Virus record (IMG/VR): IMGVR_UViG_2531839474_000001
Coordinates: 1 to 8,098 of that record
From: a virus
Taxonomy: Duplodnaviria > Heunggongvirae > Uroviricota > Caudoviricetes
Direction: 5' to 3' (one strand)
Length of the DNA stretch: 8,098 bases
Shown: piece by piece, positions 1-6,851 of the stretch
How positions within the stretch are numbered: the first letter of the stretch is position 1
Layout: every line of letters begins with the position of its first letter
Program-made: the position numbers and the translations under genes
The notes under the pieces: generated by a model
Told to the model about the DNA's origin: nothing
The model's input: the letters and a program-made list of their open reading frames with translations, nothing else
The model's database searches: none

Positions 1-263
1 CGCGCCACTGTACATCTGGCCACCCTGATACCTTCGCGTAACAACTGGCGCCAGACTTTACGCACACCGTACACCTGATGATTTTCATCGTATACGCGCT
101 GTATCTCTCTCTTCAGCCAGTCATCGCGCTGAGCACGGGCACTGCGTTTATCAGGATGATGTCGCTGTTGCTGACAGTGGTAATACGTTGACGGGGCAAT
201 ATGCAGTTCACTGCATACCGGTCCGACCCCGTACTGCTCACGCAGCTTATCCAGCAGCGGCAT
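1..263 (-). CDS. IS3-family transposase OrfB (DDE catalytic part), N-terminal portion only; continues past the window edge
   Basis: Minus-strand frame -1 relative to orfA starts at an ATG overlapping the orfA stop and translates [88 protein letters not shown], consistent with IS629 OrfB. Open to position 1. Confidence 0.8.
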   Translation of the reverse strand, partial: MPLLDKLREQYGVGPVCSELHIAPSTYYHCQQQRHHPDKRSARAQRDDWLKREIQRVYDENHQVYGVRKVWRQLLREGIRVARCTVA

Positions 264-589
264 TATTTTTTCCAGAGGCGGTCGAACTCCGCCTTCGCAA
301 AATAAGCGGAAGCCTGGCGAAGGATATCGTTACTGCGGCGCAGTTCACGATTTTCACGTTCCAGCTCTTTCAGACGCTGACGTTCAGCGGTGGTGAGTCC
401 ACCATCACCACTCCCGGTATCCCGCTCATGCTGACGAACCCACACACGCAGAGTCTCTGGTGTACAGCCAATCTTTGGGGCAATGGAACAAATTGCCGCC
501 CATTGTGAGTCATATTCGCCCTGACTTTCCAGAACCATACGAACTGCCCGTTGACGGACCTCGGGGGAAAAACGTGTATTTTTAGTCAT
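263..589 (-). CDS. IS3-family transposase OrfA (helix-turn-helix, leucine-zipper part)
   Basis: 108-aa [54 protein letters not shown]...[28 protein letters not shown], matching my memory of IS629 OrfA. It ends in LWKK with an A-rich run (tggaaaaaataatg on the minus strand) at the overlap with orfB. Confidence 0.9.
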
Positions 590-3472: not shown

Positions 3473-3657
3473 ACGCCACAATTCAAACGATACCAGAGCT
3501 TCTTATCCATACACGAGGCAATCAGACCGAAGTGGCAAGGATGCTTTCCTGCGCAAGAGGAACAGTGCTCAAGTACAACCGAGACAGCAAAGGCGAGCGT
3601 CATGTAATAGTTAACGGCGTCCTGATGGTCAAACAGGGCAAGAGGGGAAGACGATGA
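3469..3657 (+). CDS. ninH: NinH
   Basis: 62 aa; TIPELLIHTRGNQTEVARMLSCARGTVLKYNRDSKGERHVIVNGVLMV matches lambda NinH (TIPDMLVEAYGNQTEVARRLKCSRGTVRKYVDDKDGKMHAIVNDVLMV). Start and stop both in ATGA overlaps. Confidence 0.85.
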   Translation: MNATIQTIPELLIHTRGNQTEVARMLSCARGTVLKYNRDSKGERHVIVNGVLMVKQGKRGRR

Positions 3658-4277
3658 GACTCGAAAGCGTAGCTAAATTTCATTCGCCAAAAAGCCCGAT
3701 GATGAGCGACTCACCACGGGCCACGGCTTCTGACTCTCTTTCCGGTACTGATGTGATGGCTGCTATGGGGATGGCACAATCACAGGCCGGATTCGGTATG
3801 GCTGCATTCTGCGGTAAGCATGAACTCAGCCAGAACGACAAACAAAAGGCTATCAACTATCTGATGCAATTTGCACACAAGGTATCGGGGAAATACCGTG
3901 GTGTGGCAAAGCTCGAAGGAAATACTAAGGCAAAGGTACTGCAAGTGCTCGCAACATTCGCTTATGCGGATTATTGCCGTAGTGCCGCTACGCCGGGCGC
4001 AAGATGCAGAGATTGCCACGGTACAGGCCGTGCGGTTGATATAGCCAAAACAGAGCAGTGGAGGATAGTTGCTGAGAAAGAGTGCGGAAGATGTAAAGGC
4101 GTCGGTTATTCAAGAATGCCAGCAAGCGCCGCATATCGCGCTGTGACGATGCTAATCCCAAACCTTACCCAACCCACCTGGTCACGCACTGTTAAGCCGC
4201 TGTATGACGCTCTGGTTGTGCAATGCCACAAGGAAGAGTCAATCGCAGACAACATTTTGAATGCGATCACACGTTAG
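3654..4277 (+). CDS. Q: late-gene antiterminator Q (lambda type)
   Basis: 207 aa, MRLESVAKFHSPKSPMMSDSPRATASDSLSGTDVMAAMGMAQSQAGFGMAAFCGKHELSQNDKQKAINYLMQFAHKVSGKYRGVAKLEGNTKAKVLQVLATFAYADYCRSAATPGARCRDCHGTGR..., essentially the lambda Q sequence as I recall it, including the Cys-rich zinc-binding region. Confidence 0.95.
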   Translation: MRLESVAKFHSPKSPMMSDSPRATASDSLSGTDVMAAMGMAQSQAGFGMAAFCGKHELSQNDKQKAINYLMQFAHKVSGKYRGVAKLEGNTKAKVLQVLATFAYADYCRSAATPGARCRDCHGTGRAVDIAKTEQWRIVAEKECGRCKGVGYSRMPASAAYRAVTMLIPNLTQPTWSRTVKPLYDALVVQCHKEESIADNILNAITR

Positions 4278-4319: not shown

Positions 4320-4375
4320 TTGACTTTTTGAATAACTTTGGGGAAACTTGACACCAATAATGGGCGTTTTTTACA
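4320..4375 (+). promoter_or_regulatory. late promoter pR' with Q-utilisation (qut) region
   Basis: TTGACT (4320..4325), a 17-nt spacer TTTTGAATAACTTTGGG, then GAAACT (4343..4348). This is collinear with lambda pR' (TTGACT-TATTGAATAAAATTGGG-TAAATT-TGACTCAACGATGGG) and sits just downstream of Q. Similarity to lambda ends shortly after the expected transcription start. Confidence 0.6.
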
Positions 4376-4514: not shown

Positions 4515-5225
4515 ATGAGTTGTAAGCCAATGTTATCATCTTGTATTGGGGTGGTTATGAAGGATGGTGCGCTGCTCAGGAGTTCTTCACTTTTTATTGC
4601 CTACATGGGATGCCTTGGATGGGGGAGTGCTTATTTCTATGGATGGGGTACTTCTTTTTACTACGGCTTCCCATGGTGGATTGTAGGTGCAGGTGTTGAT
4701 GATGTTGCCAGAAGTTTATTTTTTGCAGTTATCGTCATTGCTATATTTCTTATCGGTTGGGGTATTGGTGTTGTATTCTTTTTCGCAGTGAAAAGAAAAC
4801 ATTCTATGCAAGAGCTAAATGTATTTCGCCTTTATTTTGCTGTGGAATTATTGTTTGTGCCGGCAATTATTGAGTTTTCTATATTGAGACAGAAGATTCA
4901 GGTACCTCTTTTGCTACTGTCAGCAGCGATTGCGCTGGCGGTTACAATTTCGATAAGATCTTATGGGCGATTTTTATCGGTATCATGCTTCTATGATAAG
5001 CCATTTATAAAAAAACATTTTTTTGAGATTGTGATGATTGCTTTTGTGGCATATTTCTGGCTTTTTTCATTTCTGACAGGATATTACAAACCACAGTTTA
5101 AGAAAGAATATGAAATGATTAATTATAATGATGGTTGGTATTATGTTCTTGCTCATTATGATAATTGTCTGGTTTTGTCTACTTCTTTCAATGCAGGTAG
5201 TAAAAGGTTTGTCATTTATCAATAA
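4515..5225 (+). CDS. uncharacterised polytopic inner-membrane protein (cargo gene in the Q-S interval)
   Basis: Only long ORF in a clearly AT-rich stretch; 236 aa from ATG 4515 (alternative starts at 4530 and 4557, none with a strong SD). About five hydrophobic helices (e.g. SLFFAVIVIAIFLIGWGIGVVFFFAV, VPLLLLSAAIALAVTISI, FFEIVMIAFVAYFWLFSFLTG) and an aromatic-rich C-terminal tail. No recognisable family. Confidence 0.6.
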   Translation: MSCKPMLSSCIGVVMKDGALLRSSSLFIAYMGCLGWGSAYFYGWGTSFYYGFPWWIVGAGVDDVARSLFFAVIVIAIFLIGWGIGVVFFFAVKRKHSMQELNVFRLYFAVELLFVPAIIEFSILRQKIQVPLLLLSAAIALAVTISIRSYGRFLSVSCFYDKPFIKKHFFEIVMIAFVAYFWLFSFLTGYYKPQFKKEYEMINYNDGWYYVLAHYDNCLVLSTSFNAGSKRFVIYQ

Positions 5226-5406
5226 GCACAAGATAAGAATCTTCAGGTTGATATTGTAAGGACCAGAATTTAATTGGCTGCATAAATAATATTTTAAGTT
5301 GCAAGTTGGCTATTCGTAGGAATAGAACCTTAGGCATGCTGAATGCGTTTTCTGAACATTGTTTTATAAACTGTGTCTGCTTGCTGTTGTGATCCTGCTT
5401 TTAGTG

Positions 5407-5517
5407 ATGGTGATGATGGATTTCACCAGCAGGATAATGTTGGTACTGACTGATGGCGCTCTGGTCTGCGGCATTGTGGTATTGCTGTGGCCGATGATGA
5501 AAGAACAGAATGAATAA
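5407..5517 (+). CDS. possible small hydrophobic peptide (36 aa, MVMMDFTSRIMLVLTDGALVCGIVVLLWPMMKEQNE)
   Basis: Short ORF with one predicted transmembrane segment, lying antisense to a listed minus-strand ORF. No convincing SD; in-frame GTG/TTG alternatives lie upstream. Speculative. Confidence 0.2.
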   Translation: MVMMDFTSRIMLVLTDGALVCGIVVLLWPMMKEQNE

Positions 5518-5703
5518 TTCTTGACTTTTTTGTTTACTGTTTATTAAAAAATCAACCGCATGGTGAATCCTCCTTGGAGGGGCTAAATGATCGAGTTTTA
5601 AGGGCACGTAGCGAGTTCTGTTTGATCATTGCAGAACTTAGCGGGAGGCGCCATGCGTACATCACTAATGTTATTTCCTTCTATCATTTTCCTTGTGAGT
5701 TCT

Positions 5704-5730
5704 GGCTGCGCATGGCGCGGCCTTTTTTTT
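5704..5730 (+). terminator. rho-independent terminator (plus-strand orientation)
   Basis: GGCTGCGC (5704..5711), loop ATG, GCGCGGCC (5715..5722) forms an 8-bp GC-rich stem with one G-U pair, followed by a run of eight T (5723..5730). Confidence 0.6.
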
Positions 5731-5919
5731 ATGACCTGCCACTGGCAGATGGTCATCCTGTGATTTGATTCCGGTTCCGGCTTTTTAACTCTGTTCCTGT
5801 ACACGGGAGAAATTCTATGTCGATTAATCGTTATGATATTGGTTACAAGAAGTACCACGTATTGTGTTGAGATAGAAAGCATGGTGCCAGAGGTAAATGC
5901 AGCAGCATAATAAAAAAGA

Positions 5920-5959
5920 GCCAGCGCAGAAGAGAACGGGTAAAAGAGTCTGCGCTGGC
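5920..5959. repeat. perfect 11-bp inverted repeat (GCCAGCGCAGA / TCTGCGCTGGC) separated by 18 nt
   Basis: Arms at 5920..5930 and 5949..5959. A second small hairpin GGGG-ATATT-CCCC follows at 5962..5974. No T-run follows either, so it is not a canonical intrinsic terminator. Confidence 0.55.
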
Positions 5960-6075
5960 GTGGGGATATTCCCCGTGGAGAAATGATATGTAACACACAT
6001 CGGGAACCTTTCTATATAAACATTATCATTATTGTCAATCATAACAGTCAGGTATTATGACGTTTATGCATCAGG

Positions 6076-6104
6076 GCCATCAGGAATTAACTGGTGGCTT
6101 TTTA
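6076..6104 (+). terminator. rho-independent terminator about 35 nt upstream of the holin start
   Basis: GCCATCAG (6076..6083), loop GAATTAA, CTGGTGGC (6091..6098) forms an 8-bp stem with one G-U pair, followed by TTTTTATTG. Confidence 0.5.
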
Positions 6105-6138
6105 TTGTTGTCAGCTTCCGGATAACGGGAGACGGGGT

Positions 6139-6354
6139 ATGTACCAGATGGAAAAAATAACAACAGGTGTGTCATACACCACGTCAGCGGTGGGGACGGG
6201 ATACTGGCTACTGCAGTTGCTGGACAAAGTCTCTCCGTCCCAGTGGGTGGCAATAGGTGTGCTGGGAAGTCTGCTGTTTGGCCTGCTGACGTATCTGACA
6301 AATCTTTATTTCAAGATTAAAGAAGATAAGCGTAAGGCTGCGAGAGGTGAATAA
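6139..6354 (+). CDS. S: class II holin (phage 21 S-type pinholin) with dual-start motif
   Basis: From ATG 6139 the product [71 protein letters not shown] (71 aa) matches phage 21 S as recalled ([68 protein letters not shown]). A second in-frame ATG at 6148 gives the shorter form. Stop overlaps the endolysin ATG. Confidence 0.9.
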
Positions 6355-6851
6355 TGTCGCCGTCATTACGCAAGGCTGTTGCAGCTGCTATTGGTGGTGG
6401 GGCTGTTGCCATAGCGTCTGTGCTCATCACTGGTCCAGGTGGTAACGATGGTCTGGAAGGTGTCAGCTACATACCATACAAAGATATCGTTGGCGTATGG
6501 ACTGTATGTCACGGACACACCGGAAAAGACATCATGCCCGGTAAAACGTATACCGAAGCAGAATGCAAAGCCCTCCTGAATAAAGACCTTGCCACGGTCG
6601 CCAGACAAATTAACCCGTACATCAACGTCGATATACCGGAAACAACGCGCGGCGCTCTTTACTCGTTCGTTTACAACGTGGGCGCTGGCAATTTCAGAAC
6701 ATCGACGCTTCTTCGCAAAATAAACCAGGGCGATATCAAAGGCGCATGTGATCAGCTACGGCGCTGGACATACGCTGGCGGTAAGCAATGGAAAGGGCTG
6801 ATGACTCGCCGCGAGATTGAGCGTGAAGTCTGTTTGTGGGGGCAACAATGA
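6354..6851 (+). CDS. R: SAR endolysin (phage 21 R-type lysozyme with N-terminal signal-anchor-release domain)
   Basis: 165 aa; N-terminal Gly/Ala-rich weakly hydrophobic segment [20 protein letters not shown] followed by a lysozyme catalytic region ([25 protein letters not shown]). Near-identical to phage 21 R as I recall it. Confidence 0.95.

Follow-up and report, generated by a model that had tools for sequence, protein, structure and literature searches.

The DNA stretch highlighted by an earlier sequence-only reading is very probably the gene for PasD1 (alias EcOnc13), a previously published small regulatory RNA (sRNA) from lambda-like prophages of pathogenic E. coli. Positions 5558-5730 of the window (the whole 8,098-nt stretch of Caudoviricetes DNA analyzed in this work) are identical on the plus strand to PasD1 of EPEC E2348/69 at 173 of 173 nucleotides (100%; NC_011601.1, 1060260-1060432, the PasD1 coordinates given in Table S6 of PMC8550237), and an exact copy is located in prophage Sp3 of O157 Sakai (901226-901398). 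The 40 nucleotides upstream of PasD1 and PasD2 in E2348/69 also match the window except for one base, and the northern probe for PasD1 has an exact match at 5691-5714 (0 expected by chance). The earlier reading found that the layout fitted nothing it could name, but the locus has a published name and is already known: the RNA was found in 2014 as EcOnc13 and named PasD1 in 2021. The window differs in nothing from PasD1 as described by Pearl Mizrahi (2021) and in the 2026 preprint of Zhu, Shabalina & Storz. Aligned with it, PasD2 shows four substitutions and one deletion of 1 nt, and two of these five differing positions lie in the terminator. Overall, a match is present in 697 of 5,426 complete E. 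coli genomes.

All sequence features listed in the sequence-only reading are present where it had placed them. Its suggestion that a small RNA is transcribed here from a nearby promoter and ends at a strong intrinsic terminator agrees with the 173-nt PasD1/EcOnc13, whose 3' end is exactly the predicted position 5730; the roles it suggested for a palindromic Shine-Dalgarno (SD) element, for mini-ORFs, and for toxin-antitoxin or attenuator arrangements are not supported. Thus, a reading of the raw sequence had picked a real sRNA gene with the correct 3' end. The features of the region are collected in Table 1.

Table 1. Features of the pasD1 region, in window coordinates.
Feature	Position	Strand	Basis
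PasD1 (= EcOnc13) small RNA, 173 nt	5558..5730	+	Identity with published coordinates
Putative -35 element TTGACT of the pasD1 promoter	5521..5526	+	Sequence and conserved position in relatives
Putative -10-like hexamer TAAAAA (non-consensus, without T at the last position)	5545..5550	+	Conserved upstream block
Structured 5' domain, 99 nt, homologous to the STnc100 5' domain	5558..5656	+	Covariance models
Helix P0	5558-5565 with 5649-5656	+	Family fold
Helix P1	5570-5574 with 5578-5582	+	Family fold
Hairpin P1 (earlier read as a palindromic SD element)	5568..5580	+	Aligns with CCCCU-loop-AGGGG, invariant in STnc100 relatives
Helix P3	5613-5621 with 5631-5639	+	Family fold
Pseudoknot (P1-P3 linker with P3 loop)	5587-5592 with 5624-5629	+	Covariation
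Single-stranded U-rich tail	5657..5703	+	Unpaired in centroid fold
Published predicted seed UGUGAG	5694-5699	+	Fig. S5 of PMC8550237
Intrinsic terminator, PasD1 3' end	5704..5730	+	Stem-loop and U8; published 3' end at 5730
52-aa DUF3927 membrane protein gene, outside the sRNA	5359..5517	+	PGAP CDS WP_000499454.1; Pfam PF13064, 53 bits, E 3e-14
Convergent partner sRNA EcOnc32 (Esr41-like)	5906..5999	-	Sakai mapping, probe, Rfam, fold
132-aa "hypothetical protein" ORF WP_012578864.1, overlapping both sRNAs	5598..5996	-	PGAP

PasD1 has been verified on northern blots as an sRNA that associates with Hfq (Pearl Mizrahi 2021, Sci Adv, PMC8550237); the evidence in EPEC also includes RNA-seq ends and its status as a RIL-seq hub. 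Its published ends map to G5558 (5') and 5730 (3'), corresponding to 173 nt; the 5' end was derived from read coverage and not from TEX or RACE data on a primary end. The RNA is expressed without prophage induction (RNA-seq baseMean ~8,650, PMC8550237), and PasD ranks very high in abundance among the sRNAs encoded in the accessory genomes of EPEC and EHEC. In O157 Sakai, EcOnc13 was identified as an Hfq-CRAC peak in Sp3 (Tree 2014, Mol Cell, PMC4104026), which the CRAC coordinates place at window positions 5664-5714, and it gave a northern band of ~187 nt from a sequence identical to the window. The EcOnc13 northern probe as printed in the supplement of that paper has no match in the window or in Sakai Sp3, which may reflect a mix-up in the table.

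The TTGACT hexamer noted earlier was confirmed, and it probably represents the -35 element of a promoter belonging to pasD1. Among PasD/STnc100 relatives, 38 distinct upstream sequences have a hexamer of the TTGnCT type at the same position, with ~18 bp between it and the -10-like block. Upstream of the RNA, conservation in this family is highest in the block TTT(G/A)TTAAAA at -17 to -8 (T-16 100%, A-11 95%, A-8 97%), and 7 nt separate the TAAAAA hexamer from the published 5' end. Since this -10 element is non-consensus, a scan of the window with a consensus promoter scanner did not call the TTGACT site. RpoD ChIP-exo signal has been reported at STnc100 copies in Salmonella (PMC10794520). Processing of PasD1 from a longer late-operon transcript may be an alternative to an own promoter, and it has to be kept in mind because the 5' end is based on read coverage.

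The terminator hairpin (5704-5722) has an 8-bp stem (GGCUGCGC/GCGCGGCC, 7 G-C pairs), a 3-nt AUG loop and an energy of -15.2 kcal/mol, and T8 (5723-5730) comes directly after it. This U-tailed hairpin follows a single-stranded U-rich stretch, as expected of an Hfq-dependent trans-acting sRNA. By plain counts, the promoter and terminator features are not beyond chance (three terminator-like sites in the scan versus 1.9 +/- 1.5 in shuffles); that they are real is shown by independent evidence, as 5558 and 5730 coincide with the ends published for an RNA verified on northern blots. No long plus-strand ORF precedes the terminator, the sole plus-strand gene upstream being the DUF3927 coding sequence, which ends at 5517.

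The 5' domain of PasD1 is a diverged copy of the 5' domain of STnc100 (Rfam RF02076). At the Rfam gathering threshold nothing was found in this region, the only match in the window being an ALIL element at 192-308, so the covariance-model search suggested earlier gave only a sub-threshold hit to STnc100, which spans the whole model (1-206) and scores 37.7 bits (E 4.3e-6), below the gathering score of 47 and below the 77-200 bits of bona fide STnc100 copies. This relationship, like that of the neighbouring sRNA to Esr41, surfaced only in the Rfam E-value scan. Our own model built from 20 STnc100-type domains, with PasD left out, matched end to end exactly at 5558-5656 with 42.7 bits (E 6e-9; next best 7.5 bits), so that the match begins exactly at the published 5' end of PasD1. 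A relationship between PasD and STnc100 is reported in the 2026 preprint too (Zhu, Shabalina & Storz).

In the structure test of the 5' domain, 94% of cells were paired versus 35-44% when the partners were slid, and changes on both sides were observed in six of six pseudoknot pairs and six of eight P3 pairs. A column-wise count on the MAFFT alignment gave 83% paired for the pseudoknot, which is an underestimate because the register shifts between subfamilies. Tested per sequence, a complementary run of at least 6 nt between linker and loop is present in 38 of 42 distinct relatives, representing at least eight sequence classes; the cross-sequence control of this test is crude, with 33% of cross pairs also reaching 6 nt because many loops are near-identical. 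PasD itself retains the pseudoknot with 6-9 bp (AAUGAUCGA with UUGAUCAUU). The nested minimum-free-energy fold is unlike the family fold, with CCUCCU paired to GGGAGG and a z-score of only -2.07. The two are about equal in energy (-37.7 for the former versus -30.2 plus about -7.6 for the pseudoknot), and given this and the covariation the nested fold was set aside in favour of the family fold with the pseudoknot. In the literature consulted, the PasD/STnc100 family is modelled with nested folds only and the pseudoknot is not mentioned; searching the text of the 2026 preprint gave no mention of a pseudoknot or promoter.

The self-complementary element TCCTCCTTGGAGG at 5568-5580, also confirmed, had been regarded as a palindromic SD; it corresponds to hairpin P1 of this conserved structured domain. 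We tentatively suggest that the 99-nt domain may be an autonomous pseudoknotted module with its own function, which phages would join to exchangeable 3' cassettes carrying seed and terminator, at times with as many as four or five in tandem. Such a module could bind a protein or ligand, or could act as an RNase shield making abundance independent of Hfq.

The 3' part of the RNA varies among PasD/STnc100 family members, and in PasD1 the U-rich tail is covered by the EcOnc13 Hfq-CRAC peak. RIL-seq chimeras contain PasD1, with contacts to many mRNAs on Hfq (PMC8550237), and the PasD contacts include the virulence mRNAs tir, cesF, bfpB and perB; aceE, gltI, yhdW, spr, uspA, coaE, tir and cesF are top RIL-seq partners. 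The target motif of the predicted seed is CUCACA, for which the reported MEME E-values are non-significant (2.4e3 for PasD1 and 6.5 for PasD2, PMC8550237); the 2026 preprint gives no validated PasD target, and its authors call PasD function unknown. In the hfq comparison, levels of pasD1 and pasD2 barely changed, with non-significant log2FC values of -0.18 and +0.55, in contrast to a strong drop of pasA, pasB and pasC (PMC8550237). Therefore, Hfq-dependent stability of PasD is doubtful.

PasD1 lies in a lambdoid prophage, near the Q gene and adjoining the holin-lysozyme operon, which is the setting given in the 2026 preprint. The Q antiterminator gene is located at 3654-4277 (Pfam Antiterm, 185 bits), a lambda-like late promoter at 4321, ~1.2 kb upstream of the PasD1 start, and the holin and lysozyme genes at 6140-6354 and 6354-6851, giving the order Q, membrane protein, DUF3927, PasD, holin, lysozyme. 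The order from Q to PasD is common to E2348/69 PP4, Sakai Sp3 and phage 434; in phage 434, which carries a PasD2-type copy, an esterase gene is found between PasD and holin. The 36-codon hydrophobic ORF running from ATG 5407 to 5517, which had been counted as part of the locus, is the ATG-started part of the separate DUF3927 gene. A literature search on DUF3927 and "TciB" returned nothing relevant.

On the opposite strand, the convergent sRNA EcOnc32 (Sakai 901574-901662) maps to window positions 5906-5994, its probe matches 5966-6000, and it has been detected as a northern band of ~112 nt (PMC4104026). Its sequence is identical in E2348/69 PP4 and has a fold z-score of -5.75; the Rfam Esr41 model matches at 5999-5910 with 32 bits, below the gathering score of 102. 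For a hairpin at 6073-6101, no Hfq-bound sRNA has been reported.

Based on these data, we propose that pasD1 is a stand-alone sRNA gene in the prophage "moron" region, flanked by Q with the late promoter on one side and by the lysis genes for holin and lysozyme on the other. In a lysogen, host RNA polymerase would start at G5558 from the conserved non-consensus sigma-70-type promoter (TTGACT at 5521, TAAAAA at 5545) and stop at the terminator, producing the 173-nt RNA. The first 99 nt would adopt the compact domain inherited from the STnc100 family, which P0 closes and which contains the P1 and P3 hairpins as well as the pseudoknot of the P1-P3 linker with the P3 loop. The remaining 74 nt comprise the U-rich single strand and the terminator; they bind Hfq and most likely base-pair in trans with mRNAs. 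In the lytic cycle, polymerase modified by Q at the upstream late promoter would be expected to pass the terminator and thus transcribe the lysis genes. Starting points for studying PasD function are the conserved promoter block, the modular layout of 5' domain and 3' cassette, and the covariation-supported pseudoknot.

A different possibility is that PasD1 is a dual-function RNA, also translated into a small peptide from the MIEF ORF (5587-5601) or the ORF at 5653, which we regard as very unlikely. Both start codons are preceded at 4 nt by SD-like sequences (GGAGGGG before ATG 5587, and GGGAGG, at 5643-5648, before ATG 5653), and a Ribo-seq study of EDL933 listed STnc100_1 (~0.90 Mb, position 902843, 159 nt, plus strand) with a ribosome coverage of 2.16. 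By location this may be PasD1, as O157 genomes carry PasD1 at ~0.90 Mb; in the new EDL933 assembly the coordinates are shifted. However, footprint reads on sRNAs may stem from Hfq or other bound proteins rather than from ribosomes. The MIEF start lies within a pseudoknot strand, STnc100 relatives have no AUG there, and neither this ORF nor the minus-strand MRLIF ORF starting at 5561 has a counterpart in relatives. The ORF at 5653 is open throughout the 173-nt RNA, passing the terminator to a stop at 5763, whereas in the equally expressed PasD2 a 1-nt deletion trims it to 14 codons with a different C-terminus. The tails of relatives after the AUG are unrelated, and consequently there is no conserved peptide; this ORF also has no Pfam family, and its GGGAGG and AUG are conserved elements of RNA structure (the former in the P4 loop region, the latter in the P0 3' strand). 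On the side of translation, a 62-aa coding sequence is annotated across the PasD2 copy of phage 434.

It is very unlikely that the stretch is a cis-acting attenuator or riboswitch-like leader, in which the 5' domain would sense a signal and set the formation of the terminator, and hence how far transcription continues to the lysis genes. The top of the terminator (5709-5717) has a perfect complement in the P0 3' strand (5650-5658, CGCCAUGCG), which could in principle provide an antiterminator once P0 opens, the 5' domain exceeds a typical sRNA scaffold in complexity, and the holin gene follows on the same strand 410 nt downstream. This 9-nt match is the sole feature in favour of the attenuator layout suggested previously, and it lies at the edge of chance, barely above shuffled terminators (maximum 8 in 50 shuffles). 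In PasD2, which is nevertheless expressed and terminated in the same way, the longest complementary run is 4 nt, and hybrids with the same terminator have a run of only 6 nt. We therefore treat the P0/terminator complementarity as probably due to chance or specific to PasD1. Moreover, across the family a shared 5' domain is combined with tails that are unrelated to one another and with 12 or more terminator variants, and members occur in tandem arrays, which fits a gene rather than an expression platform; PasD1 also accumulates as a discrete abundant 173-nt species contacting many mRNAs on Hfq.

Even less probable is that one of the protein-coding annotations is correct and the RNA features are incidental. 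The RefSeq/PGAP annotation keeps a minus-strand "hypothetical protein" label over 5598-5996 (WP_012578864.1) in hundreds of genomes, and the curated phage 434 record has a plus-strand membrane-protein coding sequence. Neither the 132-aa minus-strand ORF nor the 62-64-aa plus-strand ORF matched a Pfam family above cut-off. At the PasD2 locus the minus-strand ORF is annotated as frameshifted with an internal stop, whereas the sRNA there is intact, and both of its ends coincide with experimentally detected sRNAs; the plus-strand ORF requires a TTG start in hairpin P1 and crosses the terminator. The 132-aa ORF is probably not a gene, and both labels over this stretch are probably wrong. Finally, the type I toxin-antitoxin layout suggested previously, with the hydrophobic DUF3927 peptide as toxin and the adjacent RNA as antitoxin, can hardly be credited: the gene of this 52-aa membrane peptide does end 40 nt upstream of an abundant sRNA, but the RNA is encoded further down the same strand, in an orientation neither antisense nor divergent relative to the peptide gene, its duplex energy with the DUF3927 mRNA is no better than that of shuffles for the whole RNA or the tail (z = 0.15 and -1.0; likewise -0.63 for EcOnc32), and STnc100 relatives adjoin unrelated genes (stx2B, tRNA genes, an esterase gene). 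Duplexes of PasD1 or EcOnc32 with the DUF3927 mRNA or with the 5' regions of the holin gene and a 236-aa ORF were all in the shuffle range, and the arrangement was rejected.

STnc100, an sRNA present in multiple copies in Salmonella and E. coli prophages, is among the closest known systems to PasD1. PasD and STnc100 share the promoter block, the start at GCAUGGUG, helices P0, P1 and P3, and the pseudoknot between linker and P3 loop, as well as the position and orientation in the lambdoid late region. In contrast to STnc100, PasD has a shorter P1 loop, its own pseudoknot sequence, and an unrelated tail and terminator, and its P4 hairpin (CCGGG-AGGCA-CCCGG in STnc100) is incomplete, as a 7-nt deletion (CCGGGAGGCACCCGG to GCGGGAGGC) takes the 3' arm.

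The layout of the locus resembles that of the AsxR/EcOnc27 pair in Sp5 (Tree et al. 2014), in which a sense sRNA located after the moron genes converges on an antisense sRNA placed right before the lysis genes, and Sp3 was listed in the same work among the prophages with a convergent sRNA pair at the moron site (PMC4104026). The antisense partner here is Esr41-like (EcOnc32) and not an anti-sRNA of the AsxR/AgvB type. StxS and lambda 6S RNA are short transcripts of the late promoter stopped at the first late terminator, and they are similar to PasD1 in being late-region phage sRNAs with an intrinsic terminator that Q-modified polymerase would ignore. Unlike them, PasD1 has its own conserved promoter-like block and is not a late-promoter leader.

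The segment at 5558-5730 is the gene of an already known small RNA (sRNA), described as PasD1 by Pearl Mizrahi 2021 (PMC8550237) and as EcOnc13 by Tree 2014 (PMC4104026). When Rfam was scanned by E-value, so that sub-threshold matches are reported, a full-length match to the sRNA family STnc100 was found at 5528-5733 (37.7 bits, E 4e-6, gathering score 47), together with a sub-threshold match to the Esr41 family on the other strand (5999-5910). In a 2026 preprint, the Storz laboratory describes PasD1 and its second copy PasD2 from EPEC as structural relatives of STnc100, located near Q and adjoining the holin-lysozyme operon, often with an Esr41-like match nearby. Table S6 of Pearl Mizrahi 2021 (PMC8550237) places PasD1 at NC_011601.1 1060260-1060432 (+, 173 nt) and PasD2 at NC_011601.1 741157-741328 (+). 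In an alignment with the fetched E2348/69 locus, 5558-5730 was identical to PasD1 at 173 of 173 positions, and the preceding 40 nt likewise match; PasD2 departs from the window by four substitutions and a 1-nt deletion, five alignment positions in all. The northern probe published for PasD1 is exactly complementary to 5691-5714. All 173 nt also occur without change in the O157 Sakai prophage Sp3 (901226-901398), where the Hfq-CRAC peak EcOnc13 (Sakai 901332-901382) and a northern signal of ~187 nt have been reported (Tree 2014, PMC4104026); this peak maps to 5664-5714 of the window. The exact match to PasD1 and the mapping of EcOnc13 thus identify the locus as an sRNA gene that has been published and detected by experiment.

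The elements listed for this region by the sequence-only reading are all present, each at the position assigned to it. Simple counting gives them no significance, with three terminator-like sites in the scan versus 1.9 ± 1.5 expected, and the TTGACT promoter at 5521 was not called by the promoter scan. The interpretation held for a small-RNA gene with a promoter and a terminator and failed for the mini-ORFs, an attenuator and a toxin-antitoxin module; the terminator singled out in that reading forms the 3' end of PasD1, exactly at 5730.

Coordinates of genes and sequence elements around the PasD1 locus
Feature	Position	Strand	Remarks
Q antiterminator gene	3654-4277		Pfam Antiterm, 185 bits
236-aa membrane protein gene	4515-5225	+	
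52-aa DUF3927 protein gene	5359-5517	+	annotated; PF13064, 53 bits
36-codon ORF	5407-5517	+	
TTGACT	5521-5526	+	
MRLIF ORF	starts 5561	-	
Self-complementary TCCTCCTTGGAGG	5568-5580		
MIEF ORF	5587-5601	+	
GGGAGG	5643-5648		4 nt before ATG 5653
ATG-5653 ORF	5653-5763	+	runs through terminator
Terminator	5704-5722 (stem), T8 to 5730		8 bp, 7 GC; hairpin energy -15.2 kcal/mol
Holin gene	6140-6354		lysozyme and Rz next in order

Relatives were gathered by scanning IMG/VR for CATGGTGAATCCNCC, which gave more than 100 instances in lambdoid phage contigs; those sampled scored 77-200 bits against Rfam STnc100. All have three parts in common, namely a 5' domain (beginning with GCAUGGUGAAUCCCCCUGUGCGGAGGGGC, variable in the middle and ending with UCACCGGGAGGCACCCGGCACCAUGC), a variable tail and a terminator. 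The 5' domain is conserved, the tails attached to it are unrelated and the terminators come in at least 12 variants, which makes the family modular. Some STnc100-type relatives are arranged in tandem, with as many as four or five copies per array (IMG/VR loci L011 2265-3380, L014 3121-3798 and L082 1363-1843). Hybrids, among them L041, L018 and phage Evi (L005), carry an STnc100-type domain and a PasD-type terminator with a different tail, and a third divergent subgroup was observed between two canonical copies (L014 3374-3478, 40 bits), with AUGUGAUG/CAUCACAU as its closing helix P0. A covariance model of 20 STnc100-type 5' domains only, with the PasD sequences left out, gave a full-length match in the window with the exact bounds 5558-5656 (42.7 bits, E 6e-9), the next best match scoring 7.5 bits.

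Minimum-free-energy folding of the 173 nt gives a nested structure that is unremarkable (z = -2.07); it keeps P0 and the terminator with a mainly single-stranded tail. Across relatives, the loop of hairpin P3 and the stretch just 3' of hairpin P1 are complementary, which in PasD1 corresponds to 5587-5592 (AUGAUC) with 5624-5629 (GAUCAU), extendable to 8-9 pairs. In a 25-sequence alignment, 94% of cells were paired versus 35-44% with the partners slid, and both sides had changed in six of six pseudoknot pairs and six of eight P3 pairs. Sequence by sequence, linker and loop are complementary over a stretch of 6 nt or more in 38 of 42 distinct relatives (at least eight sequence classes), and covariation of P0 is seen in divergent copies such as AUAUGGCG/CGCCAUAU and AUGUGAUG/CAUCACAU. 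The family fold of PasD1 (-30.2 kcal/mol) and the pseudoknot helix (about -7.6) together equal the nested minimum (-37.7). These data, in which the structure is derived from the same sequences that serve as its evidence, many of them close relatives, support a predicted linker/P3-loop pseudoknot with at least eight covarying classes in the PasD/STnc100 5' domain. Only the modular architecture and the pseudoknot might be new, and a text search of the Storz preprint returned neither "pseudoknot" nor "promoter".

Among 38 distinct upstream sequences anchored at the G that opens the domain, the sole strongly conserved block is TTT(G/A)TTAAAA at -17 to -8 (T-16 100%, A-11 95%, A-8 97%), with a TTGnCT-type hexamer ~18 bp upstream of it. 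We infer a pasD1 promoter with the TTGACT hexamer as its -35 element, a -10-like TAAAAA at 5545-5550 and +1 at G5558, the RNA-seq 5' end of Table S6 (PMC8550237). This assignment is supported by the coincidence of the 5' end of the model match with the published end, by the abundance of the RNA without prophage induction (baseMean ~8,650; PMC8550237) and by the RpoD ChIP-exo signal reported at Salmonella STnc100 copies (PMC10794520). Primary-end mapping for PasD was not found in the literature.

Judged from sequence, the mini-ORFs are by-products of the predicted RNA structure. When the window is aligned with the covariance model, the palindrome noted earlier is hairpin P1, GGGAGG is what remains of hairpin P4, whose 3' arm is missing from PasD owing to a 7-nt deletion, and ATG 5653 falls in the 3' strand of P0 (GCAUGGUG with CGCCAUGC). 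The ORF starting there has no stop inside the RNA and comprises only 14 codons in PasD2, and the tails of relatives are unrelated; the MIEF start lies in a strand without AUG in relatives. The 36-aa ORF, taken earlier as part of the locus, is the ATG-started part of the DUF3927 gene, a separate gene. A dual function, with the sRNA also translated into a peptide, is very unlikely given that the ORFs are not conserved, although an STnc100 copy at ~0.90 Mb in EDL933, whose match to PasD1 is unconfirmed, has a ribosome-coverage value of 2.16 in a Ribo-seq study. It is highly improbable that the 5' domain decides on terminator formation as an attenuator: perfect 9-nt complementarity links the 3' strand of P0 (5650-5658) to the terminator top (5709-5717), and the two could form an antiterminator, but the complementarity is 4 nt in PasD2 and 6 nt in the hybrids, shuffles reach 8 nt, and the tandem arrays and swapped tails favour genes over leaders. 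Because it is not conserved in PasD2, the 9-nt complement is likely a chance match. There is hardly any likelihood that the protein-coding annotations are correct and the RNA features incidental. PGAP annotates a 132-aa hypothetical protein ORF at 5598-5996 (-), and phage 434 (OL657226.1) has a 62-aa "putative membrane protein" CDS at 43214-43402 (+) over its PasD2 copy; however, the 132-aa ORF extends across both sRNAs, was assigned to no family and at the PasD2 locus is a frameshifted pseudogene, and both annotations are probably miscalls. A type I toxin-antitoxin pair of a DUF3927 peptide toxin and an adjacent RNA antitoxin has a negligible probability, as the sRNA is downstream of and co-directional with the peptide gene and has no excess complementarity to it.

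PasD1 most likely acts by base-pairing in trans, with several steps of this mechanism being weak. The RNA would be made constitutively in the lysogen and end at its own terminator, and the CRAC peak at 5664-5714 shows that its U-rich tail and terminator contact Hfq. Read-through of terminators by Q is general lambda biology, and during lytic growth the Q-modified polymerase would be expected to read through the PasD1 terminator. In RIL-seq, the 3' part of PasD1 was ligated to many mRNAs, including aceE, gltI, yhdW, spr, uspA, tir, cesF and bfpB, and the published seed UGUGAG (5694-5699) lies opposite a CUCACA motif in targets, whose E-values (2.4e3 and 6.5) are not significant (PMC8550237). 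The 2026 Storz preprint contains no validated PasD target. In the hfq comparison (Table S2, PMC8550237), pasD1 and pasD2 were essentially unchanged (log2FC -0.18 and +0.55), and pasA, pasB and pasC fell strongly. The hfq-insensitive abundance of pasD1 and pasD2 would be consistent with self-stabilisation by a structured 5' domain.

In a lambda-like prophage from pathogenic E. coli, the window makes up the late region. When 601 nt around the locus were used as a query, they were found at 100% identity in hundreds of EHEC and EPEC chromosomes; matches occurred in 697 of 5,426 complete genomes, mostly at several sites in each. The genes run in the order NinB, methyltransferase, RusA, Q antiterminator, 236-aa membrane protein, DUF3927, PasD1, holin, lysozyme and Rz. 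Just downstream of Q, 4321-4350 (+) contains TTGACT, 17 nt and GAAACT (TTGACTTTTTGAATAACTTTGGGGAAACT, then TTGACACC), a layout which we take to resemble the lambda late promoter; the likeness of the late-promoter -35 context to that of pasD, remarked on earlier, was noted here as well. Between this promoter and PasD lies a two-gene membrane-protein "moron", also found beside PasD in E2348/69, Sakai and phage 434, whose larger gene encodes a 236-247-aa multi-pass protein without a Pfam family; the 52-aa DUF3927 protein is named "TciB" in the phage 434 record. A terminator-like hairpin at 6073-6110 (+), with 11 pairs followed by TTTTTATTG, precedes the start codon of the holin gene by ~40 nt, and no Hfq-bound sRNA was reported there by Tree 2014 (PMC4104026). 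The left end of the window holds an insertion sequence, as shown by an ALIL frameshifting pseudoknot at 192-308 (-; 121 bits in Rfam) and by the orfA of an IS3-family transposase at 263-589 (-).

A second known sRNA, the Esr41-like EcOnc32, is encoded convergently with PasD1 at 5906-5999 (-). Its reported Sakai coordinates (901574-901662; ~112 nt on northern; Tree 2014, PMC4104026) map to 5906-5994, and its probe matches 5966-6000. EcOnc32 is identical in E2348/69 PP4 and folds with z = -5.75. It consists of a hairpin at the 5' end, single-stranded AUCAUUUCUCCAC, a GGGGAAUAUCCCC hairpin and a terminator with a long loop; standard annotation misses it because its Rfam Esr41 score is only 32 bits, the gathering score being 102. 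PasD1 and EcOnc32 represent one of the convergent sRNA pairs described by Tree 2014 (PMC4104026) at the moron site of prophages, Sp3 among them.
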